Below, piece after piece: positions 3,375 to 29,500 of a stretch of 64,000 nucleotides of DNA. The DNA is taken from positions 32,001 to 96,000 of IMG/VR virus record IMGVR_UViG_3300031555_003590. One strand, written 5' to 3'. The position numbers and the translations under genes were made by a program. Under the pieces are notes generated by a model that worked only from the letters and a program-made list of their open reading frames with translations, ran no database searches and was not told the origin of the DNA. The DNA comes from a virus (taxonomy: Duplodnaviria > Caudoviricetes). Within the stretch, counting starts at the first letter, position 1. Each line of letters opens with the position of its first letter.

Positions 3375-6300
3375 TTATGGACGTGCCATTGTAGTTACAG
3401 ATCTAGTATTAGTTTTAGTGGCAGCGCTAAATGCTGAAGTAGAACTTTTAACTTTATTACGTGATCCTAACGAATTAATTGAATCTCTTAAACCTTTATC
3501 AACAAAATCTTTTTGATTAAGTGCAGTAAGTAAATCAGAAGAAGACCCAGTATTTCTAGTGATATATGTTAATTGAACTATAATTTCATTTAATAATCTA
3601 ATTGTAGTTTCAGGATCTATAGTTCTAGGAATATTAACTACTGGAATATTTGCATCACTTGAAGATTGATATACTGGTGGATTATAAGTAGAACTACTTG
3701 TACTAATTTGTTTTTGTTGATAATTATTTTGAGAAGATTGAGTTATTCCTGTTACAGTTGGAGTTTTAGTTGCATAATTAGATTGATGAATTGTACTTGA
3801 ATCAATATCATCTGCTCCACCTATAGCATCATTATTTTCCTTCCATTCACCTTTCATCTTGTCATAATAATACTTAGCATATTTCTGGCGTTCAGAAAGT
3901 TTTACCCATTCAATATTAGGATCAATACCTTCCCAATCTTTTAAGAATACTCTTGCAGCTTTAGAAGTACTTGATTCTGCAGTAGTCCAATTAGACATAA
4001 AATCTCTATAGCCACCATTTGAAGATGGTTGAATTGAATATTGTAATTGTGCTCCCATGTCATACCAATTCATACCAAGCTTATTTGCGAATTTCATTAA
4101 CCTAGTTGCAGCAGGACCAGTAAATTGACCTAAACCGAGACCAGGTCTAGGTATTCCATCATCACCTTTATATGCTTCTTCATTAATACTAAGACCCTTA
4201 CTAGCATAATCAGCAAATAGTTGTTCAGTGAATGATTTAGGATTTTCTAAAGCTTCAGTTTTCTTAGGACCAATTCGATATTTTTCATTATATATAGATT
4301 CGACTGCAGTTGGATCAATACCACTTTCATGAGACCAGTTACCAAGTACTCCAGCTATATTAATATCAGGAATATTATAATTCTTTAAAAATTGATATGT
4401 TTGCTTAGCATTCTCTTCAGCATCATCTGTTGTTTGAATATTAGCAATAGATGCAATTTCAGAATCAGAAAGTTCAACATTAACATCGTTTGATTCTATA
4501 TCATTAGATTCAGAATCACCAAATAAACCTCCAGAAATCCAATTTAATATTTTACTACCAAAGGATTTCAGTGTATTTAGTAATTTTGCAAGAGGAGATT
4601 CACTGTTAATTGTTGAAGTTCCATCTGTTGCATTTCTATTAACATCAGCCGTATGAACTGAATCAGATGTATTAATAAAATTAGATAATGTTGTACCAGC
4701 AGTTACATTAGAAAGAGGATTGATTGGTTTACCATTAGAATCTTCAATTTGATAATGTAAATGTGGTCCGCTAGAATTACCAGTAGATCCCATTTCACCA
4801 ATTTTATCACCAATACGAACTCGTGATCCAACTTTAATTGATGCTGGAATTGAATTGGCTTTAAGATGCATATTTTTAATAGTATATCCATCATCAGTTT
4901 TAATCCATACCATATTACCACCCATCTTAGTACTAGTACCAAGACCAGTATGGCTATCAGGTACACTTGATTCTACTAATGATACTGTACCATTATATCT
5001 TGAGCCAATATCAGCTGAATCTCCATAAGTTTCAGGACGAAGATCTATACCGTTATGGTAATCTTCTTTTGATCCATTACCATCTAAATCTCTCCATCCA
5101 AAATAGCTAGTAATATGTAATGGTTTATTAAGAGGATTTCCTCCAGATTTAATAGTAGATGATTGAGATTGTCCAGTTGATTTATTTTGAGATGCATTAG
5201 AACTATCTCCACCTACTCCTTCAGTGCTACTTGGAGATTCTTCAACAGTTGAGAATGCCTCACCTAATGAATCCCAACCAGATTCAAGTTTATCAATAAA
5301 CCAATTTTTGATTTTATCTATACCTTTTCCAATAAAATTTCCAATTCCATGGAATATTCCAATTGCACTCTGGAATAGTTTATTAATTCCAAATGATGCT
5401 TTCCATATTCCAGATAATGGATCTCCATTTTGAAGTTCAAGTTTGGTATTCCAAATATCCATAACTTTTCCATCATTAGCTAATGTTGAAATTTGTTCAT
5501 TTGCAGAATCTAAACTTTGATAGTTACCTTGAGTTATGGATACCATTTCACTGAAAGCTTTTGAAATTTTATTACCAACCCAATGAACTGCAGTTCTTGG
5601 ATAATTAATAAGTTTTGCAACTGTAAAAATTCCACTCATTATTCCATTAAGAGGATTTCCTTCATTTTCTTGTATAACGACATTACTTAATCCTTCAAAA
5701 TCGCCAGCTTTGGCATTTATACTTAATTCATCAATACCAGCATCAAGTGAATCTTTTGCAGTTTTAATAGTTTCCATTATTTCATTAAATGGACCCTTTA
5801 TCTTATTGCCCAACCAATGAAATGCAGTAGGAACGTAATGAATTATTTTATCAATACTAAATATTGCACTTCCAATTTTTCCAAGTGGATTCTCAGGATC
5901 ATCTTCAAGCACAATAGAACTTAGTGCTCCAAAATCTCCTGTTTTACTAGCAGCATTAAGATTTTCATGATTAGTGCTTAAAGTACTCATAGTATTTTTA
6001 ACTTTATTTACAATACTATTGAATTTATCTTTTATTTTAATACCAACCCAACTTATTGCTGCTGTAGGAACATTTAAATATTTAACAATATTAAATATTG
6101 ATTCAGTAAATCCTCCTACTGGGTTTTCTGGATCATTTTGGAATGTTAAATTTAATACTCCTGAAATATCTCCTCTTCTAGCTGTATCATTAATAGTACT
6201 AGTATTACTACTTAATACATCTATACTATTTTTAACTTTATTAATAGCTCCACCTATAACATTGCCAATTTTATTTCCAATAACTTTAAAAATAGCCTGT

Positions 6301-9300
6301 GGTATAATACTAATACGAGATGAAATAATTGCAGCTTTCATAAAACCATTCATCGGATTTTCAGGATCATCTTCTATTTTAAATAAATCTTTTAAATCAG
6401 ATGATTTATCTTTTAATAAATTTTTAGCATATTCTTGTTCATTTGATAATTTATTACCAAAATTCTTTATTTTATCAATAAAACCGCTAAATTTATCACC
6501 AATACCACTAGAAAAATTTTTAATATTAGATCCAATTGTTGATATAGTAGATGGATTTTTAGTGCCATCTTCATTAGTACTACCAACAAAGAAATTCTTA
6601 ATACCAGATCTAATTCCTTTAAGACCGCCAGATGTTTTTATACTTCCATCATCAGTAATTACTGGCATACCATTTTCATCATATACTGTTTTACCATTCC
6701 AAATACGACTAAATACTCCTTTATTAGTCATATCATTATACTCAGCAGTAGATAAATTTGAACCAGTTTGTTCATTATAATATTCTACTTGAGAAGACAT
6801 ATTAGATTGTTTTTGATCTAATTTATCTTCACCCATTAGAGCTTTATATGCTGCTTCCGCTAGAATTTGACGAATGCCTTTTCCATCATTTAATGGAGCA
6901 ATTATAAGATCGACAATTTCAATTAAACCTACATATGGAAGCCCGTCAAATACAGCACCTAGTGCAGCAGCAATTGTAGTCATCAATCCATCAACATCAT
7001 TAGGTGATACACTAAATAAATTTGCAGCATTCATTCCACCTAAAACAGCTCCACCAGCTGACATTACTGCAATACTAACACCTAATGTTACTCCAGCTCC
7101 TACTGCTTTACCAGTTTCTTTAGCAAAAATTTTAGTAACAACAGATCCGAGTTTCTTCAATACAGGTTCAGTAATTTTGGAAGTAAATTTTCCAATTAAG
7201 TCTTTTAATTTACTAGCAATTGGTTTGAATGTTTTACTTGATGCAAGTTTTTCTCCTAAATTTTTTAATACTTCAATTATTTTTTTAGCAATAGTATTAA
7301 GAGTACCACCTTCATCAAGAATACTATTAGTAAGTTTTTTAGTAGCTTTGCCTATAGGACCTACTCCTAATGTTGAACTTACTTGAGTTACAGCTTCAGT
7401 TCCACGACCAAGCATATCAGATGATTCTTCATCCATGCCTACTTTTTCTGCTATATTGCTTACAAGCCAATTAGCACCTTTACCAGCCACTGATCCAATT
7501 CCAGTTCTAAGTGCCATTTTACCCATAGCTTGCATAGGTTTAGATTTAAAAACACCTTTAGCTTTATTTAAGTTTTGTCGTGCTCTCATGCCACTTGCAG
7601 TTGCATCTCCATATTTAGCAGCATCCATAGCATTTAATCCAATACCATGTTGAAGTCCTGCAGACATTAAATTACTTCCAGCAACTAATCCAGCATTACG
7701 CCATATTGAATTTTTTGCTCTAGTTACATTTTGATTTACAATTTCATTTCCAGCTGCATCAGTATTTACATGAGTTAAATCTGCAAGAGGATTAAAATAA
7801 TCAATTTCACTATCGGCTTGAAATCCTAAAGGAGCTGTCAATGTATTAAGAACAACATTTTCTTTTTCTCCTCCATTTACAACCCAATCTAAAAGATTAC
7901 TTGCACCTTGTCCGAATTTTGTAAGAAGATCATCAAGCTTACCAGTAAATCCTAATACTGCTGCTATTAAAGCTGCAATTCCCATAGGACCGCCAAGAAC
8001 ATCTTTAATATTAGATAAAACCCCACCAATTTTATCCCAAATACTTGTTTTTTCTTCATCTGATTCTTGAGATTTCTTTTTCTGTCCACCCATTAAATTT
8101 TTTAATCTATTTAATATAGTGGATTTATTTGGATTTTTCTTAGCTCCTTCATCGATAAGATTAGTAACTTCTCTATGTTCGCTATCAGTTATAACATCAT
8201 TACTAGCAATGATAGATGCAGCTGCAGGAATAGTACTACTAATAATTTCATTATCATTATTATCAGATTTACCAATAGATTTCTTTTTACCAGTAATAAA
8301 CTTAATAATTTCATCTAATCTTTCATGTAATCCTTTATCATGAGTAAAAATAGATCCTTCTGTAGTTCCATGATCTGCAAGAGTTTCAACTGCATCTTTA
8401 GTTGCCTTTGTATTTTCAGCAATTTCAGATGTTAACTCAACAGTTTCTTCTTTAGTATAATCATCAATATTTAATTGATCTCTTTCAATATCTTGATTTT
8501 CTTTCCAAGATTCCCAATCTTTACGTCCACTTACACGGTGTCTCTTTACAACTTTAATCATTTTTCCAGGAGGTCCATCTGGATCTTGTACATAATCAGC
8601 TTCATAGCTATTATTATAATATCCGCTTTCAGCCTTATCCATATCAGCATCAGCTTTTTGAGATTTTATACGCTGATTAATCTTATCTCTACCTTCTTTA
8701 CCAGCAATCATTTTAGCAATAGAATTTAATCCACCACCAATAACTGCGCCACCAGTTTCAGTTCCTCCTCGAACAAGATTACCAATTGCTGTAATTGGAG
8801 CTTTAGCAACATTTAATGGGAACATTAAGAATTTCTTTAAAAGTCCACCCATTCCCTTGAATACTTTTCCAAATGCTGTATCGGCAACTTTACCAGCAGC
8901 ATTAGACATTCTTTCTTTAATTGCTTCTCCAATATTAGATAATGGACCCATAATATTTTTCTTTAATACAGAACCAAAGGAAGTCATAGTTTTACCAATC
9001 TGATATCGAATTGGATCTGTTATGTTATCTACAACTTTACCAATTAATCCTCTTCTTTTATCTCGATCTTTCTTTTTATCTCCTTCATGTTCTTTATCAC
9101 CAAATAATAGTTTTTTAATTTTTGATCCTATTCCACTTGTTTGACTAATTGCATTTCCTGCAATACCGCCCATTATAAGTCCAAGTGGACCTCCTAAAAT
9201 ACCAGCACCAAGCATTGAACCAATAGCTGTACTAAATATTTTATTACGTTTATTATCTATACTAGAATCCTTATCTTCTTTATCGCCATAATTAAAATAT

Positions 9301-11585
9301 CCAGCTACCGATTTAACCCATTTTGATGCATTTGAAGAAGTATTTTTTAATGCTGCTTTATAACCGCCTGGTCCAAAAATTAAATTATTAAAATATCCTA
9401 AATAACCACCATTTTCATTTTTCTTAACTTCATATTCTTTTCCATCTTTAGTATATTTATAACTAGAACCAGTAATTTTGTGTTTTAAATAACCAGCTAT
9501 ATTTTCATTATTATCATTAATTTTTAAAAGCTGATCTTTTATAAAAGAAGAACTTACTTGCCCTATATCAGTAATAATATTACCAAAAGCAGCTCTTACT
9601 TCTTCAGGAGATCCACTAAATATAGCTTTACGTAAATTGCCTCCGCGATGTTTAGCCCATCTACCAACTCTTTGACCAGTGGTTAGTTGTTCAGTAGTAC
9701 CATCTTCATTAGTTTGATTTTGAAGTAGATTAGGTTCATCATCACCTTTAATAGAAGATGAAGTAGAAGTTGTTGAAGTTGATGTATCAGGCTCATCTGG
9801 ATCATTAATAATTTTAGGTTTATATCCTAATGGAGGAGATACAAATTTATTTCCAAATCGTGCATATGGTTTCTTACGAGAATTTTTAGATCCCATCTGA
9901 AATACATTAATGCCAGTATCGAGTTTACGGAATATTTCATATAATACAATATTGGTATAATTAAAACCTGTAGCTGCTTTTGGATCAGAAATAGATGCAG
10001 TAGATGTATCTTCTATTTTACCATATCTAGCAAGAATAGTTTTTCGTTCATTCTCATGAGAATCTTCAACTCCAGATATATCAATATTATATTTATCATA
10101 TTCAGAAATAGCATTTCTAACTCTATTATTGCGATATATTGTATTTTTGCTAGCTTGCTGAGCAATGTCAATGATACCATTATTTGATGTAAGAGCAACC
10201 AGACCTTTTATAACTCTATCATATTCTTTTTGTTCATCTTTATCTATTTTAACGCCTTTCATGACATATTTATCAAAATACTCTCTAACTGCTTTTTCAT
10301 TCTTAAAACTTCCAAGTTTCTTTTCAGGACTTCTTTCAGTACTAAGTTGAGATAATAATAACTCATATGCCATATTAGATGTACTAGAAGTACCAATTGC
10401 ATCACGAACTTTAGAAGATGATGCATAAATACTACCACTATTTGCAGTTGTATTTAAAAATTCTTTATTAATTGCTCTTTGGGTTTTAAATGATCTAGAT
10501 CTATAATCATAGACTACATCATCTCCACCTAAAGCAACTAATATTTTTCTTAAATATCCTGGAATTGTATTAGTGATAGATTCACGAGTAATTGTATCAA
10601 AACTTGTTGCTTTAACATCAAATGTAGATCTTTCAGTAGATTGAGATTTTCTTGAAGCATCCAATCCTAAAAATTTTCCTAAAATTCCAGTTGGTCCAAA
10701 TGGATTATTTCTACCAGCATTTCCTAATCTAATTAAAGATTGCATTATTGTATCATTGACTGCACTATCTAATGCTTTTAAGTTTTTTTCTAAATTAGGA
10801 GATGCTTTATTTATACCAAAACCGATTACGGATTTAAATATATCTTGTGGAGAAGTTCCACTAATTATCATTGGTATCATTTGTAACATTGAAACCATGG
10901 GATCATTTTTAATTCTATTACCAACCAGCTTCTTATATGAGCTAAGATCAAACTTACCATTTTTGATCATACTTGATGAAAGATCATCTTCTTTATTATT
11001 CAAACTTCCACCAATAGCTGTAGTTGCTTCAATCATAGCTGAAGTATTCTTGGTAAGAACTTCAAGAATTTTATCTAATCTATTATTAACATTATCAAAT
11101 CCACTAGTGATAACAGCAGTTTGTTTATCAATAGTAGTATCAAGAGTTGCAATTGATGAAATTTGACTTTCAACCATTTGTTTAGATGATTCAACTACTG
11201 CTTTTGCAATTTTATTTGAATTCTTTTCATTTTCATTGAATTGAGCTTCTGCAATATCACTAGAATCAATATCACTATCAAATTCTAAATTAAGATCAAG
11301 ACCAGAATCATCAAACTCATCTTCTTTTTCCATATACCAACGGTATATGTTTTTAAAATTAGCTTGTGATTTAAATTGTTTAATTCTATTTGAAGCATTT
11401 TGTGACATACTTGCAAATCCGGAAGTAACTTGTGATATAGTGGATTTTGCTTCAGATAATGTTGAACTAGTTGTTGGCATTACTTCACTAATATAATCTC
11501 CAGTAGCACCAACAATATATCCTCCAGTTTTCTTTAAAAAATCTAAGTTAAGTTTTTTATTCTTAACAGCGATAGAAGAACTCAT
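3375..11585 (-). CDS. Tape-measure-like virion protein with C-terminal M23 peptidase and phage tail lysozyme-like domains
   Basis: 2736 aa with long G/A/I-rich helical regions; M23 motifs YHNGIDL and STGNSSGPHLHY; lysozyme-like GVLGNWSHESGIDP...GLGLGQFTG. Confidence 0.85.
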   Translation of the reverse strand: MSSSIAVKNKKLNLDFLKKTGGYIVGATGDYISEVMPTTSSTLSEAKSTISQVTSGFASMSQNASNRIKQFKSQANFKNIYRWYMEKEDEFDDSGLDLNLEFDSDIDSSDIAEAQFNENEKNSNKIAKAVVESSKQMVESQISSIATLDTTIDKQTAVITSGFDNVNNRLDKILEVLTKNTSAMIEATTAIGGSLNNKEDDLSSSMIKNGKFDLSSYKKLVGNRIKNDPMVSMLQMIPMIISGTSPQDIFKSVIGFGINKASPNLEKNLKALDSAVNDTIMQSLIRLGNAGRNNPFGPTGILGKFLGLDASRKSQSTERSTFDVKATSFDTITRESITNTIPGYLRKILVALGGDDVVYDYRSRSFKTQRAINKEFLNTTANSGSIYASSSKVRDAIGTSSTSNMAYELLLSQLSTERSPEKKLGSFKNEKAVREYFDKYVMKGVKIDKDEQKEYDRVIKGLVALTSNNGIIDIAQQASKNTIYRNNRVRNAISEYDKYNIDISGVEDSHENERKTILARYGKIEDTSTASISDPKAATGFNYTNIVLYEIFRKLDTGINVFQMGSKNSRKKPYARFGNKFVSPPLGYKPKIINDPDEPDTSTSTTSTSSSIKGDDEPNLLQNQTNEDGTTEQLTTGQRVGRWAKHRGGNLRKAIFSGSPEEVRAAFGNIITDIGQVSSSFIKDQLLKINDNNENIAGYLKHKITGSSYKYTKDGKEYEVKKNENGGYLGYFNNLIFGPGGYKAALKNTSSNASKWVKSVAGYFNYGDKEDKDSSIDNKRNKIFSTAIGSMLGAGILGGPLGLIMGGIAGNAISQTSGIGSKIKKLLFGDKEHEGDKKKDRDKRRGLIGKVVDNITDPIRYQIGKTMTSFGSVLKKNIMGPLSNIGEAIKERMSNAAGKVADTAFGKVFKGMGGLLKKFLMFPLNVAKAPITAIGNLVRGGTETGGAVIGGGLNSIAKMIAGKEGRDKINQRIKSQKADADMDKAESGYYNNSYEADYVQDPDGPPGKMIKVVKRHRVSGRKDWESWKENQDIERDQLNIDDYTKEETVELTSEIAENTKATKDAVETLADHGTTEGSIFTHDKGLHERLDEIIKFITGKKKSIGKSDNNDNEIISSTIPAAASIIASNDVITDSEHREVTNLIDEGAKKNPNKSTILNRLKNLMGGQKKKSQESDEEKTSIWDKIGGVLSNIKDVLGGPMGIAALIAAVLGFTGKLDDLLTKFGQGASNLLDWVVNGGEKENVVLNTLTAPLGFQADSEIDYFNPLADLTHVNTDAAGNEIVNQNVTRAKNSIWRNAGLVAGSNLMSAGLQHGIGLNAMDAAKYGDATASGMRARQNLNKAKGVFKSKPMQAMGKMALRTGIGSVAGKGANWLVSNIAEKVGMDEESSDMLGRGTEAVTQVSSTLGVGPIGKATKKLTNSILDEGGTLNTIAKKIIEVLKNLGEKLASSKTFKPIASKLKDLIGKFTSKITEPVLKKLGSVVTKIFAKETGKAVGAGVTLGVSIAVMSAGGAVLGGMNAANLFSVSPNDVDGLMTTIAAALGAVFDGLPYVGLIEIVDLIIAPLNDGKGIRQILAEAAYKALMGEDKLDQKQSNMSSQVEYYNEQTGSNLSTAEYNDMTNKGVFSRIWNGKTVYDENGMPVITDDGSIKTSGGLKGIRSGIKNFFVGSTNEDGTKNPSTISTIGSNIKNFSSGIGDKFSGFIDKIKNFGNKLSNEQEYAKNLLKDKSSDLKDLFKIEDDPENPMNGFMKAAIISSRISIIPQAIFKVIGNKIGNVIGGAINKVKNSIDVLSSNTSTINDTARRGDISGVLNLTFQNDPENPVGGFTESIFNIVKYLNVPTAAISWVGIKIKDKFNSIVNKVKNTMSTLSTNHENLNAASKTGDFGALSSIVLEDDPENPLGKIGSAIFSIDKIIHYVPTAFHWLGNKIKGPFNEIMETIKTAKDSLDAGIDELSINAKAGDFEGLSNVVIQENEGNPLNGIMSGIFTVAKLINYPRTAVHWVGNKISKAFSEMVSITQGNYQSLDSANEQISTLANDGKVMDIWNTKLELQNGDPLSGIWKASFGINKLFQSAIGIFHGIGNFIGKGIDKIKNWFIDKLESGWDSLGEAFSTVEESPSSTEGVGGDSSNASQNKSTGQSQSSTIKSGGNPLNKPLHITSYFGWRDLDGNGSKEDYHNGIDLRPETYGDSADIGSRYNGTVSLVESSVPDSHTGLGTSTKMGGNMVWIKTDDGYTIKNMHLKANSIPASIKVGSRVRIGDKIGEMGSTGNSSGPHLHYQIEDSNGKPINPLSNVTAGTTLSNFINTSDSVHTADVNRNATDGTSTINSESPLAKLLNTLKSFGSKILNWISGGLFGDSESNDIESNDVNVELSDSEIASIANIQTTDDAEENAKQTYQFLKNYNIPDINIAGVLGNWSHESGIDPTAVESIYNEKYRIGPKKTEALENPKSFTEQLFADYASKGLSINEEAYKGDDGIPRPGLGLGQFTGPAATRLMKFANKLGMNWYDMGAQLQYSIQPSSNGGYRDFMSNWTTAESSTSKAARVFLKDWEGIDPNIEWVKLSERQKYAKYYYDKMKGEWKENNDAIGGADDIDSSTIHQSNYATKTPTVTGITQSSQNNYQQKQISTSSSTYNPPVYQSSSDANIPVVNIPRTIDPETTIRLLNEIIVQLTYITRNTGSSSDLLTALNQKDFVDKGLRDSINSLGSRNKVKSSTSAFSAATKTNTRSVTTMARP

Positions 11586-12826: not shown

Positions 12827-12896
12827 AATTATATCCTCCTATATAATATTTTATGACGGAGTTTTAGTAAATATGTAATATTATTTATAATATTGA

Positions 12897-12982
12897 GCCA
12901 TAGGGCTTTCACCTATGGGAGTAAAGGTTGGATTAGTGCTGCAGCCACTTACCAACAGTCTGGACTCTGCCGACTAAGCATA
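12897..12982 (-). ncRNA. Candidate small structured RNA
   Basis: GC-enriched non-coding patch with three hairpins (AGTC/GACT, GTTGG/CCAAC, CCATAGG/CCTATGG). Confidence 0.35.
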
Positions 12983-13035
12983 GATAAATTTTACTTTACT
13001 TTTTCATATTATGTACTTTTAAGAGATTTTCTTTT

Positions 13036-13113
13036 TGGTCAAAGTTAATAGGAGTCGAACCTAATCCCTCCGCCGTATGTGGCAGCGTGCTATTTCCGCT
13101 ACACTAAACTTCT
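13036..13113 (-). pseudogene. Degenerate tRNA-like element (CAT within a 6-nt anticodon loop)
   Basis: GGTTCGACTCC T-arm, D-arm and encoded ACCA end. The anticodon arm CTGCC-ACATAC-GGCGG lacks U33 and the acceptor stem is mismatched. Confidence 0.55.
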
Positions 13114-13218
13114 AATCTCTGCTACACTAGTCTCGATCGCTGTACATTCAATCATTGAAACTAGTTTGTACAATGTAGCATACATAAATATGGCTTTATA
13201 CTCACTACTCAATATTAT

Positions 13219-13294: not shown

Positions 13295-13302
13295 ATGTTT
13301 AA

Positions 13303-13436
13303 AAGGATTCACCGTGGGCTACTCACACATAGTTCTGTCGGTTAGTGTTACCGACGTACTATTATATGTTTTCACCTTTAGTATATAGGCTCACTACTTC
13401 CTATATACCCAGGGGCACGGCTACTCTACTCCCTGT
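13303..13436 (-). ncRNA. Candidate pseudoknotted structured RNA
   Basis: Hairpins CAGGG/CCCTG, GTATATAGG/CCTATATAC and GTCGGT/ACCGAC; loop CCGTG is complementary to a distal CACGG. Confidence 0.5.
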
Positions 13437-13514
13437 AAATTAAACATATATTGTATAATTATCTTTGGCACACAACACACATCAAAGATGTTATATAATA
13501 TATGTAATTTATAA

Positions 13515-13746: not shown

Positions 13747-13754
13747 ATATAAAG

Positions 13755-14116
13755 TACAGACAGATCAACATTTTACACACTAACCTAGTCCTAAGACTGC
13801 TAGTACCTCTCCAAACAATTATTGCTTTCCACGCCTCAAATGTTGATGTGACTCTGCCTGATATTTACTCTGAGCAGTCACTACCCAGTTGTCAACCCCC
13901 ACTTAATCCTGCCTATTCTAGGTATCGATGTGATTGACTGCTTATGCCTTTAAGCATCGGATATCCTACTTCACCCATTTCAGATAATCCGCATAGCCTC
14001 CTACTTGGCTCTTATAGGCTTGATTTGCATTTTTTGAATAGAGTGCTACTCCCACACGTTCCCATCTCTATTACTGTAGTCAGTAATCCAGCCAGGATAT
14101 ATCATTTCACCTGGAC
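13755..14116 (-). ncRNA. Candidate large (~360 nt) structured non-coding RNA
   Basis: ORF-free and GC-enriched, with many helices (CAGGCAGA/TCTGTCTG, ATCAACATTT/AAATGTTGAT, AGCAGTCA/TGACTGCT, AATAGAG/CTCTATT, ATTACTG/CAGTAAT, CCAGG/CCTGG). Confidence 0.6.
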
Positions 14117-14120
14117 TTAA

Positions 14121-14461
14121 TGGTGCGGGTAGCCGGACTCGAACCGGCATGGATTACTCCGAGAGATTTTCATCACACTCTTGGTTATGAATTCCCAAGC
14201 CAATTCAAAGAATTGTTGTGCGCTGGAATACGTTTTTACCATATCATTCCTGACTTAGGTAGTAGGTCTATATTCTCTACACATTTATCAAATTATTTCT
14301 AATTTGAATTTAGCACGGCGTTCCCATTGAGCCATTCACCGTTTTAGCCTACTCCACTTATAAAGTTTCCTTCATAAGGCTCCACCTTTACTCAAGGCAA
14401 CTTACTATAGCAAGTTCTCAATGGAGAAGTCTCTTGTGTCTGCCAATTTCACCATACCCGC
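14121..14461 (-). tRNA. trnL: tRNA-Leu(UAA) interrupted by a group I intron (exons 14461-14427 and 14170-14121)
   Basis: Joined exons give an 85-nt tRNA with a long variable arm: GCGGGTATGGTGAAATTGGCAGACACA-AGAGA-CTT^AAAA-TCTCT...GGTTCGAGTCCGGCTACCCGCACCA. Confidence 0.93.
14171..14426 (-). mobile_element. Group I intron (256 nt, no ORF) in the tRNA-Leu anticodon
   Basis: 5' exon ends in U (P1 CTT/GAG with a U-G pair); intron ends in G; core elements AACGGTGAA, GCCGTGCTAA, GTGTAGAGAATA and AAACGTATTCC. Confidence 0.9.
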
Positions 14462-14471
14462 ATATTATATA

Positions 14472-14975
14472 TCAAATATATTTAAAATAAGTTTTCTCAA
14501 TTTTTTGTGCAGGAATTTTATCTATTTTATTATTTTGAATAGATGCACCATATTTACCTGCACATTCTTTACTACAGAAATGAGGTTTATTTCTATTTCG
14601 TTTATCAGTTTGAGCTTTAGTTGGAGTAAACATCTTACCACATATCGGACATTTAATATCTTTAACTTCAACTCTAATTGCATCATTTTTGGTATGTTCT
14701 TTACGAGGTTGGATATCTAAATTATGAGGCAAATTATTAACTACATTCCAATCTTTATGATGAATGGTATCAGTATCTTTTATAAGTTTATTTATTTCAA
14801 TCTCTTTTAACGCTTTTGGGTAAGAAATTGTTTTTGTCTTACCTTTTATATTTTTTGATTTAGATGAGTCATTTAAAACTATATGTAATCTACCATCATC
14901 TCTTAGATATGGACCGTAAACTTTATCATATTCTGAATATAATTTCAGAATAGGACTTAAATCTTTATTATCCAT
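14472..14975 (-). CDS. Free-standing HNH homing endonuclease with C-terminal zinc finger
   Basis: TIHHKDWNVVNNLPHNL...EH HNH motif; CPICGK...FCSKEC; GGAGG RBS. Confidence 0.85.
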   Translation of the reverse strand: MDNKDLSPILKLYSEYDKVYGPYLRDDGRLHIVLNDSSKSKNIKGKTKTISYPKALKEIEINKLIKDTDTIHHKDWNVVNNLPHNLDIQPRKEHTKNDAIRVEVKDIKCPICGKMFTPTKAQTDKRNRNKPHFCSKECAGKYGASIQNNKIDKIPAQKIEKTYFKYI

Positions 14976-15011
14976 ATTATTAAAACCTCCAATATATTAA
15001 GATGAAATAGC

Positions 15012-15038
15012 TGTGTCTGCCAATTCCACCACACCGGC
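15012..15038 (-). pseudogene. Truncated tRNA-Leu 5' fragment
   Basis: GCCGGTGTGGTGGAATTGGCAGACACA, 24/27 identical to the 5' end of the intron-containing tRNA-Leu. Confidence 0.8.
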
Positions 15039-15162
15039 AGATAAATGGCACTAACGTAGTTCCCACGGCTCTTTTTTCACCCTTCTTTATATAAAGTTAG
15101 GATGCCTCTCGCACTAGCTGTGCTAAGGTTTTAAGAATACTATATAGTATTCTTATTGCAAT

Positions 15163-15239
15163 TGGTGGGCCTTCAGGGGCTCGAACCCTGGACCTGCAGA
15201 TTATGAGTCTGATGCTCTAACCGGCTGAGCTAAAGGCCC
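15163..15239 (-). tRNA. tRNA with CAU anticodon, most like tRNA-Ile2 (lysidine-modified); elongator Met not excluded
   Basis: GGGCCTTTAGCTCAGCCGGTTAGAGCA...CTCATAA...GGTTCGAGCCCCTGAAGGCCCACCA; the acceptor stem resembles bacterial Ile2 tRNAs. Confidence 0.9.
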
Positions 15240-23580: not shown

Positions 23581-26500
23581 ATGCGTAATGATATGTACGA
23601 AAATAACTGGAGTCCATTTGATCCACAATGGTATTCAGCTGCTTTTGATCAGTTTGTTAGTACAGCTGATCAATTATTCAATCAGAATTTGATCATACAA
23701 CAAGGTTTCAAACTACCAGATGCTGATGGTTCTAGATCATCAGTATTTAGAAATGAAGCTGTATTAAATAATTCATTTAATGAACAAAAACTACGTGAAA
23801 CTCTAAAAGATATTTATTTAAACTCTACACACAAATTGATTGCTAGTAATCATGATAACACACATTTTTATCAATGGCATGGTTATATGTCAGATATGGA
23901 ATTAATCCCAAATACTAATATGTGTCAATTTAAAATTCCTACTGAAACATTTATCTATCCTAAAGAGCGAGATAAATATAAATTATCTCAATTCTATAAT
24001 ACTTGGATTAAACCTGAAGATATACTAAATAATTGGGAAGTATTTAAATGGCATTGTTTATTATTTATTGATCAACGTATCTATTCTGATTATGAATTAT
24101 ATATGGATGATCATGAAACTATTATTAGATTTAAATACTATGATTATTGGGTTAAAGTAAATCATTCTGTATATATTTATAAATTTGATACAAATGCTTC
24201 TTGTAGAATTAAAATTACTAGAGAATTATGTAAAAATCAATGGAATTGGAAATTACCAATTTCTTATATTGATAATAAGAAAATTGTTAATTTTAATAAT
24301 ATAATGGTAGCATTTAATAAAATTAGTGATACTACAATTCGTAAAGACGGATTAACTCATGTAGATGTTTTAGGTGATAATTTAGAATTTTTAAAAATTG
24401 AAGATGGATATATTGATTTATCTAAAATTAGTAATTTTAATAAAATTCTAATTGAATCTGAATCTACTGAATGGATATGGATGTCTATTATTGTACCTAA
24501 ATTTTTCCATGAGTATCCTATTATATTGCCTACAGATGTTGTATATAGGCCTTATGAAGCTGATCTACGTCCAATTGTTATTTCTGATAGTATGGATATT
24601 AGGCATACTAAAGTTGATACTAATAATGAACGTAAACAAGTGTACGTAGATATGAATGGTAAATTTAATGAAGAACATATTGGATGGAAACAATTAATCA
24701 GGCCAATAGTATTATCAGATGCTTTTGATAATCCATTTGATGAACCTTATACTTCATATATAGGTGAATTAAGTAACCTTAGAGATTTAACTGTAAAAGG
24801 TGCTGATACAATTGAAGAATTCAGATTCTATATGTCAGACAATCCTACTAATGAAGGTATATTAGAATTTGTTGATAAATTAACTAATGATATCAATAAT
24901 ATTCATACTTCATACAATGATTTTTTAATTAAACGACATATGGAAACTGATATGGAGTATGAATATCAATATAAAAAATTTCTTTCAATAATGGATGAAA
25001 TTAAGGAAGATAAATTATATAGCAACTGGTTTATTTATAATAATACTGAAGATGGTAATACAAAAGATTTATGGCATACAATTTCTAATCAAATTTATAC
25101 TCCTAGCGAAATGTATGATAAATATTCATTTGCAAACATTATTCAATCAATGCATAATAATGGTATACTATGGACTGATGCTGATAAATTTATGAATCAA
25201 CATCGATTCCGTAGACCTATTGATGAATTAGATTTTTGGACATTTGAATATGATATTACTAATGAAGTATGGAGACCTTATCATCTAAATGTTACTAGAC
25301 ATTTTCCTGATGTATATATACTAACAGATCCAGCACAAGAAATTCCTTCAACAAATAGAATATTTAAATCATTCTTCTTTTATAGTGATACAATGAATGT
25401 GCTTGATCAAAATGAAGATATTATCCGTGCTACTAGTAGTTGGGATATTGATATGCAAGAATATGAATATGATAAAGGTGCTATTTATCGTGATATCTTT
25501 ATGGAAAAATTTTATTGGATGGGTATTAAATCTATCTATAAAGGAATTACAGAAACTAATTCTAGATGGGAAGTATTGGAGTATGTAATTGATAATCCTT
25601 CATATGAACGTTTCAATCAGCTATTCTTAAATACCATGGATCCATATTTTAAAATGGGATTAGCTACATTTTTAAAGAGTTCTAATTATGAATTTCCATT
25701 TGATGATGCAGTAGATAAAATGAATGAAGCTATTAATCAACAATTCGTAGGTTATAAAAGAATAACTAATTTTGAAACATATCTAAACAAAACCTGGATT
25801 CCATCATATTTTGATTATGTTACAAAAATAATGGATGATTGGGATCCTGGAGATAGATTACTTCATCGTCCTAGATCTTCATTTGATGTTTTACGTTTAT
25901 TACCTCTACTCCTTGATGTTGAAAATAATATTTCAATTGCAGTAGGTACTGTATCTAAAACTTTATCTTGGATTTTAGAAAAATTAAAAGAAGAATCGTA
26001 TAATTTAAATATAGAAAATATTGAAACTATCCAATCTAAAACTGAAGAGATGTTAAATAATATTATTACAGTTTATAAATTTACTAAAGATTTAGATTTA
26101 GATATTTACAGTATTGAAGATTTAAATTATATTATTTCTAAACTTCAGTATCATATGAAACTAACTGATGAGTTAGAACAATTATTTTCAAACTCAAGAC
26201 AAGATATCCAAAATAATAATGTATATGAGAATAAAAAGAATAATTTATTAGAAATTACTAATACTAATTTAGATACTCTTTATAATTATATCATTAATAT
26301 TGGTGGAATGGTTCAAAATTTTGATATGGAAACATTTATGAAATCTATTAATGATCTTACTAGTTATTTTGAATATAATAAAGTCAATCCAAGTGATACT
26401 AGTTTAATTGGTTATATTAATAAATTTAATACACCTTGGTCTATTAATATTAAAGAATTACGTAATAAATTATTCCAATCAACTTCTATTATGTATGGTA

Positions 26501-29500
26501 AATTTGAACCTACTAAAGCTTATACTAATGATGAAGTAATTGAATTTGTTTCTTTAGTTAAGAATGTACAAAATGATCTTATATCATTTATTGATGCTAT
26601 TTCTAAATTCTGGAATGATATGGGATATTCTAAAGATGAAATTATAATTGATAAATTTGATAATGTAACTGAATTGCTTGATAAATTGATTTCAAATCTA
26701 TCCACATATATGAATTCTAGAGAAGAATTATTATCTAATACCAATTTAATATTAAATATCCTCAGTGATATATTAAAATACAATATTAGTGATAAAGAAA
26801 AAGATATTTATAATAATCTCTATGATAATATTAATAATATTATTTTATCTTTATCATATATTGCTGGAAGTAATAATAGAGATGAAGCTTTAAAATATTT
26901 TCAAGAATTTAAAACACATTTAGTGGATTGGAATTCATATTTATCAATAGAAGAAGAGGTATTTACTAAGTTAATTAATTTTACTGAACTTCCAATTGAA
27001 TTTATTGATAGATTACGTAAGGATGAATCTTTACTACAATCAATGTGTGAATATATGGATACTAATAATATACCATATGTTCCTGATACTGATTGGCCAA
27101 CATATTCAGATGTATATACAGTTGATCAGATTGAATTATTAAGTGGAGGATTTAATAATAAATTTGGTGAACTGGTAGTAGTTCCAAATTTAGGATCATA
27201 CAAAATAACAAAACTTGGTGATGATAATGGTACTGCTGAATTAATTGAAGATACTGGATATCGTAATACAGTATTTAGAGATCCAATGATTCAGTCTAAT
27301 CCATATGATACTATTACAAGTGGTAATGGAATGGGTATTACAGTTAAGCCAATTCATTCTAATAGAATCCCCATTATAAATGATGAAGTCATTAGTGTTT
27401 ATATTACTAGAATGCAGAATAGTTCTTATCTAATATCTGAAAATCTAAAAACTCCTAATCCTTATAATAATGATTCATTTACTAATTCACTTAATGGAAT
27501 TAGAGAAATAAAATCTGATTGGGATAATGTTATTAAATCATATACTGATCATATATCTGATAACGCTAGAAATTGTATTAATGAATTAATTAATATTCTA
27601 ATATCACTTATTGAACCTTGTGAGAATTTCATTGATGTTCGTAAAAAAGCTGATTTAGCAGGGTTAATTACTTTAATAGATTCATTTATTACTTCTTGCT
27701 TTAATTTTGCAGATATAAATAATCTTTTGAATACAGATTATTATTACTATGAAGATAGTATAAAAGTTATATTAACTGATTTACAAGAATTTTATGGAAA
27801 TGGCACTACATGGAATGACTCTACAGAACTTAAAAATTTATTAGATTCATCTAAATATCCTATTAGGTTATTCAAAGTTAGAGTAATTGATCAATTTCCT
27901 AATAGTAATGATAAAACTTCAATTATTTCTAAATATGACACTATTATGGAAAAGATTTCTACTATTGAATCTACTTTATCTGAACTTCCTAAACTTTTAA
28001 TCGATATTAATCCAATTATTCGTAATCTTGATAAAAAGATAACCGAAATTCCAAATGATATTATTAAAAATGATATTTGGTATAGAATTAAAATTATTAG
28101 AGTTGCATTAGAAGGTGAAGGGTATAAAATAGGAGATGTTGTATCTATTATTCCTGAGCTGCCAAAAGATTCTGAAGGTAATTATATTCGTGATATGGAA
28201 GACATAATCATGAATGATACAATTCTAGTTAGAGTCACAGAAGTAGTAGATAATAAAGTAACATCACTTGAGCCTATTATGGATTATGCAATACCTTATT
28301 TAATTTGGGGTATTCGTGAAACTAGAACTGTTGTTGGTACTGGTAGGGGATTAACTGTTGATGTATATTCATATCAGTTACAGCTATCTGATAGTAAACT
28401 ATTTGAAAATGAAGAATCAGATATAGCAACATTGCCACAATATAATGAAAATGATATGTTTGTATTCATGTTTGAAAATATTCATGATCTGAATATTCAA
28501 TATGAAATTTTTTATGGTGGTAAACAAATTACAAATTTCTTCCAGAGACATATTAGTAGCACTGATCCTCTCCATCCTACTGGTATTGATGCTATTTATT
28601 TAAATGCAAATGAAGTATCTAATTTAAAGAATTCATCTATTTATATTCCTGCAGAGCATTATTTTATTTATAAACTCGATCATATTACAATTAAAGATCC
28701 AGGTGCAGGATATTCAGTTGGTCAAGAAATATTTGTTGATCTAGAAACTGTTGCATTGAGATTAAAAATTGCAAGTCTTATTTTTGGACCATATAAGGGA
28801 ATTGAATCAGTAGAATTATCTGATGCTAGAATTAGTGTAGATGGTGGCAATCCAAGTTCTGAAAATGCAATGGTTGTAACTGATTCACTCAATAATATTG
28901 ATGATGAATTCAATAACGGATATTATGATCAATTGAATAATGAAGGAATTATTAAAGCAGCTACTAGATCTCTTGATGCTGATAGATATCAATTTATTTC
29001 TAATAGGTTTGATAATTTATCAGATGGGGATCGTAATAAAAATTTTATGTACCCAGATGTAGATATTCCTTTAGTAGAAGATGCCTCTACCAATGGTGAT
29101 CCAGATGATCATTTCTATTTAGGTAGTAGAATTGATAATTCTCAACATCCTATGTCAGATGATCATAAATGGAATGGTATTATGAATATTATTTCTCCTA
29201 CTGATCCATTTATTCCTGATGATAGAAGAATTCCTAATAATAAACCAATTAAAGGTGAATATCAGGAAATTGCACATTTAAGAATTCATAATTCAATTAA
29301 TGAAACTAATACAGATGTAAATAAAATATATAATAAATCTATAAATAATACAGCTATGATAGAAGGTGACTATGTAGTTGATAAATTTTCTCAATTACCT
29401 AAACATTTAAATGATTGGCCTGCTGCTAAAATTGGTAAATGTGTTATTGTTGAAAATGATGAAACTAATAATGGTCATAGAATGATGTACAGATTGAGAA

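Follow-up and report, generated by a model that had tools for sequence, protein, structure and literature searches.

Introduction

According to reviews, the group I introns of phages reside in protein-coding genes, and genes for homing nucleases are rare in phage tRNA clusters (PMC3984707, PMC2330249). A literature search of incomplete coverage returned no description of group I introns in phage tRNA genes. The closest described arrangements are those of collaborative (trans) homing, known from the free-standing F-CphI beside an ORF-less psbA intron in cyanophages and from mobE with the nrdB intron and I-TevIII in phage T4 (PMC2790892; reviewed in PMC3984707). A second relevant system is T4 SegB, a free-standing GIY-YIG homing endonuclease encoded in the phage tRNA cluster, which recognises a T-arm motif common to many tRNAs, cuts at tRNA 3' ends and drives the inheritance of itself and of the flanking tRNA genes, overwriting the tRNA region of the recipient (PMC2330249). 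The endonuclease I-Ssp6803I is encoded in the tRNA-fMet intron of Synechocystis (Bonocora and Shub 2001; listed in PMC3984707).

Here we describe a locus within the tRNA array of a jumbo phage from the gut, with a genome of 292 kb and 28% GC. The 64,000-nt stretch of its record that was analysed is hereafter called the window. We read the locus as probably a scar left where a homing endonuclease invaded a tRNA-Leu gene. As in collaborative homing, a free-standing nuclease gene adjoins a gene with an ORF-less group I intron, the stop codon of the HNH gene lying 10 nt from the intron-bearing tRNA; the intronless allele is the proposed target and the intron the proposed immunity determinant. The likeness to collaborative homing with a tRNA as target had already been drawn in an initial annotation of the sequence. 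The locus differs from the described cases in having a tRNA gene and not a protein gene as its target, an I-HmuI-like nuclease with a zinc-finger tail, a retained stump of the displaced gene and an intron that is optional in relatives, and in being known from sequence alone. Like segB, the nuclease gene is embedded within a phage tRNA array; unlike SegB, which comes with no intron, its family is of the HNH type, is tied to tRNA-Leu and has its breakpoints in the D-arm/anticodon-stem region. With I-Ssp6803I the locus shares a homing endonuclease linked to the anticodon region of a group-I-interrupted tRNA gene, the target in the window being a predicted one. I-Ssp6803I is a bacterial enzyme that is always encoded in an intron; its target tRNA is another one, and its nuclease fold is PD-(D/E)XK, unlike HNH.

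Locus organization and assembly check

All features of the locus lie on the minus strand (Table 1), in the transcription order stump (an orphan tRNA-Leu 5' piece), GGAGG, HNH gene, 10-nt gap and tRNA-Leu(UAA) gene with its intron. The ribosome-binding site, HNH gene and complete tRNA-Leu listed in the initial annotation were each found in place.

Table 1. Features of the tRNA-Leu locus, in window coordinates.
Feature	Coordinates	Strand	Description
tRNA-Met	15163..15239	minus	First gene of the same-strand tRNA array; context
Orphan tRNA-Leu 5' piece (stump)	15012..15038	minus	27 nt, GCCGGTGTGGTGGAATTGGCAGACACA; acceptor strand GCCGGTG and whole D-arm; stops where the anticodon stem begins
GGAGG ribosome-binding site	14986..14990	minus	10 nt ahead of the HNH start codon; direct sequence reading
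Free-standing HNH homing-endonuclease gene	14472..14975	minus	167 aa
tRNA-Leu(UAA) 5' exon	14427..14461	minus	35 nt, ends ...AGAGACUU; ARAGORN with introns allowed
ORF-less group I intron	14171..14426	minus	256 nt, between U34 and A35
tRNA-Leu(UAA) 3' exon	14121..14170	minus	50 nt; AAAAUCUCU..., variable arm, T arm, TACCCGC-A-CCA

Both the fragment/HNH and the HNH/tRNA junction recur, with zero differences, in independent Logan contigs of four faecal-metagenome runs, which excludes an assembly chimera. No empty allele was seen in the Logan contigs of faecal-metagenome runs. Contig joints that skip 633 or 865 bases were considered as deletions and rejected; their sides comprise only 22 letters with foreign tRNA-Leu sequence between them, and we read them as cross-matches of other organisms' tRNAs. 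Megablast of the 2.8-kb region against GenBank phages returned tRNA pieces only, the neighbouring 411-aa protein had no relative among viral contigs, and no syntenic or close relative of this jumbo phage was found among GenBank phages and viral contigs.

The stump upstream of the HNH gene

The stump and nt 1-27 of the tRNA-Leu(UAA) gene (14461-14435, GCGGGTATGGTGAAATTGGCAGACACA) are identical at 24 of 27 positions, with mismatches at positions 3, 7 and 13. The two are the sole 3-mismatch matches in the window, where 0.00 are expected (100 shuffles), and the same search of the whole 292-kb genome again recovered only the stump and the gene start. The 27-nt fragment and its degree of identity, both given in the initial annotation, are borne out by these searches. 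The 3' acceptor partner of the stump, CACCGGC, is absent from the tRNA strand of the entire 292-kb genome, and the 3' half of the displaced gene was found neither downstream of the present gene nor anywhere else in the genome. The present gene ends in TACCCGC-A-CCA, which pairs with its own GCGGGTA and not with the GCCGGTG of the stump; 2 of the 7 acceptor positions differ between stump and gene. A 27-mer identical to the stump starts a normal tRNA-Leu(UAG) in another locus (L109). Similarity between stump and gene ends at nt 27-29, so the stump is not simply an old 5' exon plus the start of an intron, and that candidate was rejected. Together with the recurrence of such pieces described below, the data support the view that the stump is indeed what is left of another tRNA-Leu allele and that it is linked to the HNH gene.

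The stump might also have been retained for a function, as a 5' hairpin of the HNH message, as a promoter -35 element or mainly as a homology arm, and so be more than a passive recent scar. With its three preceding bases it folds as a 9-bp hairpin (UCUGCCGGU/AUUGGCAGA), the 204-nt leader has a fold z of -2.35, a TTGGCA-N18-TAATAT element overlaps the stump, and the stump shows no decay against the consensus phage tRNA-Leu D-arm; in the Salmonella phage PVP-SE1, described below, AGAGG in the stump is the only Shine-Dalgarno-like sequence before the HNH ATG. Hairpin complementarity is, however, partly inherent in any tRNA-Leu with a GCCGG acceptor, the transcription start predicted from the promoter-like element would remove the GGAGG, and most relatives of the HNH gene do without a stump. 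Promoter-like sites occur at chance level (12 found against 13.4 expected in shuffles), and the stump was rejected as a promoter source for that reason. Overall, we regard a retained function as improbable.

The tRNA-Leu(UAA) gene and its group I intron

ARAGORN found the interrupted tRNA (14461-14121, with a 256-nt intron) only if introns were allowed, and mislabelled it as Phe. Hand reading of the anticodon arm gave AGAGA-CUU/intron/AAAA-UCUCU, a UAA anticodon interrupted between U34 and A35. The joined exons read AGAGA-CUUAAAA-UCUCU and form a complete class II cloverleaf, and RNAalifold paired the acceptor, D and anticodon stems across the intron. No ORF of at least 60 aa lies within the intron.

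The intron has a P1 with a U.G pair at the splice site, a P2 with a GAAA loop, a P3-P7 pseudoknot, P4-P6, a P8 with a GGAA loop, a P9 domain and a terminal G. Inspection of the alignment showed that in P1 the exon CUU and intron position +1 pair with (G/A)GAG located at P2 or at most 2 bases from it; position +1 covaries, with C-G in the window and L148 and U-A in L068, L124 and L184. The junctions GACTT/...G/AAAATC (slashes mark the splice sites) are common to all 11 aligned members of the intron family, every intron ending in G. P3 occurs as six distinct helices, each with at least 5 of 6 pairs kept, P7 as five distinct strand pairings, four with 6/6 pairs and one with 4/6, and the P9-closing helix as three versions with 5/5 pairs kept. 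Compensatory changes are present in P2, P4, P6 and P8 of the RNAalifold alignment, where they affect 36 of 79 pairs, and also in P3, P7 and the P9-closing helix. Beyond the window, over 15 phage or metagenome loci carry homologous introns at this position. A 16-mer scan of viral contigs for the intron core gave mostly chance or protein-coding matches, nine loci being true introns, and the core 21-mer was present in only 1 of 185,579 prokaryote species genomes.

Rfam gave no group I match at the gathering score, nor at E <= 10 on 2.8 kb; RF00028 was matched only when 381 nt were searched alone, with 15.3 bits (E 0.15), below the gathering score of 50. This sub-threshold score is a limit of the model and not of the fold, and family membership rests on structure and covariation. 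By these features the element is a real group I intron of the tRNA-Leu(UAA) type, predicted to be self-splicing; junctions, fold and covariation bear out the ORF-less group I intron that had been proposed in the tRNA-Leu anticodon. No RNA run was found among the sequencing runs that contain the locus.

The intron shares with the cyanobacterial tRNA-Leu(UAA) intron the insertion between U34 and A35, its small size, the lack of an ORF, the order of helices and a short P1 dependent on the anticodon stem. The P2-P3 and P7-P3'-P8 stretches of the two are presumably very similar. Unlike its cyanobacterial counterpart, the intron in the window is phage-borne, too divergent for RF00028 and extended by a two-hairpin P9 domain, and some members of its family host HNH genes in L1 or P6. 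As a family of group I introns in phage tRNA-Leu(UAA) genes, these elements escape the usual tRNA and Rfam scans.

The HNH protein

The N-terminal 100 aa of the HNH protein are I-HmuI-like, and the C-terminus carries a CxxC...FCSKxC treble-clef zinc finger. PHROG 14913, 'HNH endonuclease', was matched at 1.2e-11. Pfam gave weak zinc-finger matches only, with no HNH match at E <= 0.1 on the protein itself, and HNH_3 (PF13392) was matched by 6 of 7 aligned relatives, the best at 6e-10. The HNH motif, HH-x-D...NN...NL...EH, spans residues 72-94. Residues H73, N85, C109, C112 and C138 are invariant among 29 relatives, C134 is present in at least 90%, and H94 is invariant in the 7-sequence alignment. 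Searches of PDB sequences with the single sequence or a profile returned zinc fingers only, and Foldseek gave no match at E <= 0.001. An AF2 model with a pLDDT of 94 aligned best with I-HmuI (1u3e), the nicking HNH endonuclease of the SPO1 DNA-polymerase intron, over 85 residues of the N-terminal sheet and HNH motif (Z 7.3, rmsd 3.7 A, 25% identity), and residues 105-152 matched YacG (Z 3.6). I-HmuI and the HNH protein of the window are both phage proteins associated with group I introns; they differ in target gene and in the C-terminus, which in I-HmuI consists of helical and HTH modules in place of the treble-clef/YacG-like zinc finger.

The invariant residues and the confident predicted fold make the ORF look intact. 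The identities of both HNH protein and intron follow from relatives, covariation and fold, their own Pfam and Rfam matches being missing or sub-threshold. Those weak matches, and the origin of the record in a metagenome assembly, are what could be cited for a duplication that is a chance match or assembly artefact beside a decayed, inactive nuclease remnant unrelated to the tRNA. Against this stand the zero matches expected by chance, the same junctions in contigs of four runs, an intact ORF with all family-invariant residues and a confident fold, and the same arrangement in isolates, and we consider such an explanation extremely improbable.

The HNH family and its association with tRNA-Leu

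Gene contexts were compared for 38 relatives with at least 110 aligned aa. Ten of them are encoded within a tRNA-Leu(UAA) intron, immediately behind the 5' splice site; another 12 are directly 5' of a tRNA-Leu gene (9 UAA, 2 CAA, 1 UAG) and 4 directly 3' of one. These positions indicate that the HNH family is specialised on phage tRNA-Leu genes. In the tree, intron-borne members are scattered among free-standing ones, and well-supported branches force at least three switches; one clade with 100/98 support mixes intronic members (L228, L232, L233) with free-standing ones (L229, L230, L255). The presence of the family inside the intron as well fits the route from free-standing gene to mobile intron that was predicted for collaborative homing. 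A tRNA-Leu-specialised family both within and just outside an intron would represent, on one target gene, the long-postulated intermediate in the birth of mobile introns.

Free-standing HNH genes stand beside intronless tRNA-Leu genes in L229, L230, L242, L245, L248, L255, L261, L282 and PVP-SE1, and the intron occurs with no HNH gene in L068, L124, L134, L148, L162 and L184. A free-standing HNH gene next to a gene with an ORF-less intron was found in the window, in L268 (same intron family) and in L238 (another intron). Intron and HNH gene do not form an obligate unit, since each occurs without the other. The composite mobile unit of nuclease, replacement tRNA and intron put forward in the initial annotation is consequently retained in part: the replacement tRNA is pictured in PVP-SE1, but the intron is optional and the parts are found apart.

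Stumps in other loci and the empty allele

Orphan tRNA 5' pieces precede four more free-standing relatives (L229, L253, L272 and PVP-SE1), and none was found in 12 of the 16 free-standing relatives tested. The pattern is seen in phages unrelated to this one, cultured Salmonella phages among them. Counting the one in the window, five loci have stumps, all with end points at nt 18-30 of the tRNA; these breakpoints fall 5-16 nt short of the intron site. The stumps of L229 (30 nt), L253 (about 24 nt) and L272 directly precede the HNH start; that of L272 is identical to the adjacent gene at 17 of 18 positions, with 0 of 200 shuffles as good. In both L272 and L229 all 7 acceptor bases are the same as in the adjacent gene. 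The initial annotation had held that fragment and intron kept together in relatives lacking the HNH gene would speak against its reading; upstream of 7 HNH-less genes bearing the same intron, no orphan piece was found.

The clearest case is the Salmonella phage PVP-SE1, a very distant phage whose wholly unannotated HNH gene encodes a protein 36% identical to that of the window. The gene lies on the complement strand of NC_016071 at about 65914-66408. The 29-nt stump of PVP-SE1 is the same as nt 1-29 of an intact tRNA-Leu(UAA) retained in this place by HNH-less relatives, and stump and upstream flank together correspond to the start of the intact tRNA-Leu(UAA) in Klebsiella phage K54_rec2. The two phages diverge exactly after nt 29, at the HNH ATG. 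Where the relatives keep the intact allele, annotated as tRNA-Leu in many natural relatives of PVP-SE1, PVP-SE1 carries the HNH gene and a different complete tRNA-Leu(UAA); compared with K54_rec2, its tRNA-Leu is replaced and the neighbouring region altered. By sequence comparison, the intact tRNA-Leu(UAA) of the HNH-less relatives is the empty allele for PVP-SE1. The empty allele of the window is known only by this analogy, because no close relative of its phage was found in the collections searched, and the alignment with related phages suggested at the outset was productive for PVP-SE1 and not for the window itself. The fragment had been regarded as the remnant of a displaced allele, a view upheld by its orphan state in the genome, by the recurrence of stumps before HNH relatives and by the empty allele of PVP-SE1. 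Since the scars can be recognised and cultured Salmonella and Klebsiella phages provide an empty allele, the mechanism is open to bench testing.

Proposed mechanism

We propose that the HNH endonuclease opened a resident tRNA-Leu gene by a cut or nick close to the anticodon, no further 5' than about nt 30, and that the left end of the break was trimmed to nt 27-29. Cleavage in this region is hinted at indirectly by the stump ends in five loci and, for the vicinity of the intron site, also by the intron-borne relatives and the anticodon-loop counts given below. A segment comprising the HNH gene and a complete tRNA-Leu(UAA), itself interrupted by an ORF-less group I intron, would have served as repair donor. 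Homology would have resolved the right side, and the left side would have been joined illegitimately, leaving the old stump, the HNH gene and the new complete gene in a row. The GCGGGTA/TACCCGC acceptor stem would be donor-derived on both strands, which implies that the whole tRNA was co-converted. Today ribosomes would enter the HNH gene at its own GGAGG within the transcript of the tRNA array, and the intron would self-splice from the pre-tRNA-Leu. The intron probably shields the adjacent gene from its own nuclease, because it interrupts the tRNA sequence after nt 35 and the new copy has almost the same D-arm as the stump; given these near-identical D-arms, any immunity would have to lie 3' of nt 27. 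In later homing, the stump could act as a short left homology arm.

An explanation from tandem genes differs from this invasion only in the origin of the present gene, since it also requires the HNH endonuclease to break a tRNA-Leu. Here the HNH gene landed in or beside an upstream tRNA-Leu isoacceptor and deleted its 3' two thirds; the intron-bearing UAA gene was already resident, no tRNA was imported and the stump is not a displaced allele of the present gene. HNH genes do lie between two complete tRNA-Leu genes in L268 (UAG-HNH-UAA, same intron family), L230/L231 (CAA-HNH-UAA), L262 and L227. The 2/7 acceptor differences between stump and present gene are also what two Leu isoacceptors of one phage show, the exact 27-mer of the stump begins the tRNA-Leu(UAG) of L109, and a second Leu isoacceptor would be dispensable at 28% GC. 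On the other hand, the stumps of L272 and L229 match the adjacent gene at 7/7 acceptor bases, that of PVP-SE1 comes from a UAA gene whose place another UAA gene has taken, and the stump ends cluster at nt 18-30 and are not random. We judge the tandem arrangement unlikely for the window and favour the invasion with an imported tRNA.

More tentatively, the invasion may belong to a natural 'cleave-and-rescue' drive on a tRNA, a possibility to which we give less weight than to the invasion itself. The nuclease would destroy the tRNA-Leu of co-infecting phages and carry an immune tRNA-Leu with it, immunity being conferred by the intron here and by sequence change elsewhere. The cassette might be portable between unrelated tRNA arrays because the duplicated 5' piece serves as a left homology arm, and the 5'-exon duplication might be an intermediate for nuclease hopping into or out of the intron. 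Such invasions could explain orphan tRNA fragments and unannotated ORFs of phage tRNA arrays, and they bear on the shuffling of phage tRNA repertoires.

Anticodon-loop sequence of HNH-adjacent genes

The spliced anticodon-loop sequence GACTT/AAAATC is present in 11 of 11 intron-bearing genes and in 30 of 50 background intronless phage tRNA-Leu(UAA) genes, the background being genes picked by a D-arm pattern. It occurs in only 2 of 12 intronless genes beside an HNH gene (Fisher p = 0.01, relatedness ignored). This scarcity is a hint, from sequence counts, of the target of the nuclease. PVP-SE1 is an exception to the pattern: its incoming gene has the canonical loop, and the displaced allele is without it.

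Organization of the tRNA-Leu locus

The window (bases 32001-96000 of a 292-kb IMG/VR virus record with 28% GC) carries a tRNA array on the minus strand, from 15239 to about 12900, which is GC-enriched and contains few ORFs. Within it lie an orphan tRNA-Leu 5' piece, a free-standing HNH gene and an interrupted tRNA gene.

Features around the interrupted tRNA gene, in order 5' to 3' along the minus strand
Feature	Position	Strand	Remark
tRNA-Met	15239-15163	-	
27-nt piece GCCGGTGTGGTGGAATTGGCAGACACA	15038-15012	-	
GGAGG	14990-14986	-	
167-codon ORF (HNH)	14975-14472	-	
Spacer between HNH ORF and interrupted tRNA gene		-	10 bases
Interrupted tRNA gene, tRNA-Leu(UAA)	14461-14121	-	
Spacer 3' of interrupted tRNA gene		-	370 nt
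tRNA-Asn, tRNA-Gln, tRNA-Lys		-	after the 370-nt spacer

The interrupted gene was seen by ARAGORN only with introns allowed, which placed a 256-nt intron at position 35 and mislabelled the tRNA as Phe. Read by hand, the joined exons give AGAGA-CUUAAAA-UCUCU within a normal class II cloverleaf, with the acceptor GCGGGUA/UACCCGC and an encoded CCA; it is a tRNA-Leu(UAA) gene with the intron between U34 and A35.

Three array spacers (13747-14120, 13295-13514 and 12890-13218, all minus strand) had no Rfam match at E <= 10, and are probably structured RNAs because they are ORF-free with 40-50% GC in a 28% GC genome. A tRNA-like gene at 13040-13112 (minus strand), not called by ARAGORN, reaches 19.5 bits where the threshold is 29; its acceptor stem, T arm and GACCA end are good and its anticodon loop is odd (CCACAUA, without U33). 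The perfect 22-nt palindrome AAGAATACTATATAGTATTCTT at 15133-15154 (minus strand), 9 nt past tRNA-Met, forms a 10-bp hairpin in the leader fold. Two giant ORFs, at 3375-11585 (minus strand) and 23581-31806 (plus strand), encode 2736 and 2741 aa.

The duplicated 5' piece

The 27-nt piece and the start of the tRNA-Leu(UAA) gene agree at 24 of 27 positions. A search allowing 3 mismatches returned these two sites only, where shuffles expect 0.00, and the whole genome holds neither a third copy, even at 6 mismatches, nor CACCGGC, the partner for the piece's acceptor strand. An ordinary tRNA-Leu on another phage contig (L109) starts with the identical 27-mer, and the piece is therefore a bona fide gene fragment. 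Both junctions are spanned without difference by independently assembled contigs from four faecal metagenome runs; together with the shuffle expectation this excludes a chance match or an assembly artefact. The duplicated fragment beside the HNH gene, reported in the initial annotation, is thus confirmed.

The HNH nuclease and its family

Pfam gave no HNH match for the window protein; PHROG 14913 ('HNH endonuclease') matches it at 1.2e-11, and Pfam HNH_3 is found in 6 of 7 aligned relatives. H73, N85 and the zinc cysteines C109, C112 and C138 are invariant across a 29-sequence alignment, in which the zinc cysteine C134 is kept in at least 90% of sequences; the window protein has all of these residues. 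H94 does not vary among the 7 sequences of the smaller alignment. At Z 7.3 and 25% identity, the best structural match for the first 100 residues of the confident AF2 model (pLDDT 94) is I-HmuI, an HNH nicking enzyme from the polymerase intron of SPO1; the next match scores 4.8. For residues 105-152 the likeness is to the treble-clef finger of YacG. The gene seems intact, and its product is predicted to be functional.

Relatives with a shared identity of 25-43% were gathered from viral contigs, metagenome contigs and GenBank phages, and context was counted for the 38 with at least 110 aligned residues. Ten are encoded within a tRNA-Leu(UAA) intron and begin some tens of bases past the 5' splice site; another 12 stand immediately upstream of a tRNA-Leu gene, whose first bases they often overlap, and 4 immediately downstream of one. 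In a maximum-likelihood tree the intron-borne and free-standing forms are interleaved, with well-supported branches forcing at least three switches; one nuclease family has therefore moved repeatedly between the intron interior and just outside the same target gene. Free-standing HNH genes adjoin an intron-bearing tRNA-Leu(UAA) at three loci: the window, L268, whose intron is of the same family, and L238 (2063-2388, plus strand), which encodes the closest relative of the window HNH (40% identity in the alignment, tblastn E 1e-27). The L238 tRNA-Leu(UAA) holds a different group I intron, which lies before C32 where the window's follows U34, and the last base of the 5' exon there is A in place of U.

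The intron

The window intron stays below the Rfam threshold, at 15.3 bits where 50 are required. In viral and metagenome contigs, pattern scans recovered more than 15 other tRNA-Leu(UAA) genes with the same insertion site (GACTT|...G|AAAATC) and introns that share the core of the window intron. For five ORF-less members, RNAalifold recovered the tRNA stems across the intron as well as P2 (GAAA loop), P3, P4, P6, P8 and a two-hairpin P9 domain, with compensatory changes in 36 of 79 pairs. Since RNAalifold cannot predict the pseudoknot, P3-P7 was examined by anchored extraction: P3 occurs as six different helices, each keeping at least 5 of 6 pairs, and P7 as five distinct pairings, with 6/6 pairs in four and 4/6 in one (GAATAT/TGATTC). 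The P9-closing helix occurs in three versions with 5/5 pairs kept. P1 has a U.G pair at the splice site, and covariation is seen at position +1, which forms C-G in the window and in L148 and U-A in three further members. The window intron belongs to the tRNA-Leu type of group I introns. Among 185,579 prokaryote species genomes only 1 has its 21-nt core, on a MAG contig of 4.5 kb; within the reach of these scans the intron family is one of phages.

L226 (5657-6520, minus strand) has an intron of the same family and exons nearly identical to the window's; its P6 holds a different, classical HNH ORF broken by in-frame TAG codons, and 450 nt upstream there is a tRNA with a CTA anticodon, which suggests a TAG-recoded phage with a recoded intron nuclease. 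Another family member (L134, 4257-4761, minus strand) has a P9 insertion of about 200 nt holding a tRNA-like sequence with T-loop GGTTCGAATCC. A phage tRNA-Leu(UAA) at L112 (1309-1450, plus strand) has an insertion of about 50 nt before U33, too short by far to be a group I intron.

Recurrent stumps and an empty allele in cultured phages

Orphan tRNA 5' pieces stand directly before the start codon of a free-standing HNH gene in four further loci: 18 nt in L272 (17/18 identical to the adjacent tRNA-Leu(UAG); 0/200 shuffles as good), 30 nt in L229 (its acceptor agrees with that of the adjacent gene, which has a strongly altered D-arm), about 24 nt in L253, where the contig ends after the HNH gene, and 29 nt in Salmonella phage PVP-SE1. 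In tRNA numbering these pieces stop between nt 18 and nt 30, and that of the window stops at 27-29. Twelve of the 16 free-standing HNH loci tested have no stump, so it is an occasional by-product and not a requirement. Seven loci with the intron and without HNH have no tRNA 5' piece within 1 kb. In L264 (1418-1945, plus strand) an HNH relative directly 3' of tRNA-Leu(UAA) is followed by an orphan 3' piece (T arm and acceptor strand), the mirror image of the window's 5' stump.

The PVP-SE1 homologue (L302, 1480-1974), unannotated in the reference record NC_016071, starts right after its piece and runs into a complete tRNA-Leu(UAA). At the same place, and behind the same upstream flank, the HNH-less Klebsiella phage vB_Kpn_K54_rec2 has an intact tRNA-Leu(UAA) that begins with the 29 nt of the PVP-SE1 piece; the two phages diverge exactly at the HNH ATG. 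The intact allele is annotated as tRNA-Leu in many natural relatives. The resident gene was therefore truncated at nt 29 in that lineage and replaced by HNH plus another complete tRNA-Leu(UAA), with neighbouring tRNA genes changed too. A displaced allele and a replacement tRNA, as first proposed for the window, are thereby documented in cultured phages, complete with the empty allele, and PVP-SE1-type phages offer good experimental access to the system. Between tRNA-Ile and HNH, PVP-SE1 also carries an unannotated 109-nt tRNA-like gene with an insertion (L302, 965-1073), which ARAGORN calls Met with a 14-nt intron.

Proposed history of the window locus

Most likely, a family member cut or nicked the resident tRNA-Leu gene near the anticodon; the longest stump, 30 nt, would set a lower bound for the break, and in the intron-borne relatives the intron interrupts the gene at 34/35. 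The left end would then have been trimmed, and repair from a donor would have copied HNH and the complete intron-bearing tRNA-Leu(UAA), through an illegitimate left junction and a homologous right junction in or beyond the gene. As the acceptor of the present gene is of donor type on both strands, the whole gene would have been converted.

The main rival derives the stump from a separate upstream isoacceptor gene, the intron-bearing gene being already resident; it fits the stump's two acceptor differences, and at four loci HNH has a complete tRNA-Leu gene on either side. This rival and repair from a donor agree on the key point: a tRNA-Leu gene would have been broken by the HNH. A functional role for the stump is also possible and would be compatible with either; a hairpin and, in PVP-SE1, a ribosome-binding site speak for it.

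Under conversion from a donor, any self-immunity must lie 3' of nt 27, because the D-arms of stump and new copy are almost the same; beyond that point the new copy has a differing anticodon stem and is split by the intron. Of 50 background phage tRNA-Leu(UAA) genes without an intron, 30 have the motif GACTTAAAATC; it occurs in 11/11 intron-bearing genes once spliced, and in only 2 of 12 HNH-adjoining intronless genes (p = 0.01, a statistic that ignores relatedness), with PVP-SE1 as an exception to the pattern. This points the same way as immunity 3' of nt 27.

Comparison with known systems

A link to tRNA repertoire diversity has been drawn for the HNH genes of mycobacteriophage tRNA clusters (PMC6409571). 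Neither phage tRNA genes with group I introns nor the HNH family of the window turned up in the searchable literature. The window system would work like collaborative homing (PMC2790892, PMC3984707) in pairing a free-standing nuclease with an ORF-less intron, and like SegB of T4-type phages (PMC2330249) in the nuclease-driven replacement of tRNA regions. It differs in that its target is a tRNA gene, its nuclease joins an I-HmuI-like core to a zinc finger, one family is both intron-borne and free-standing, and 5' stumps are left behind.
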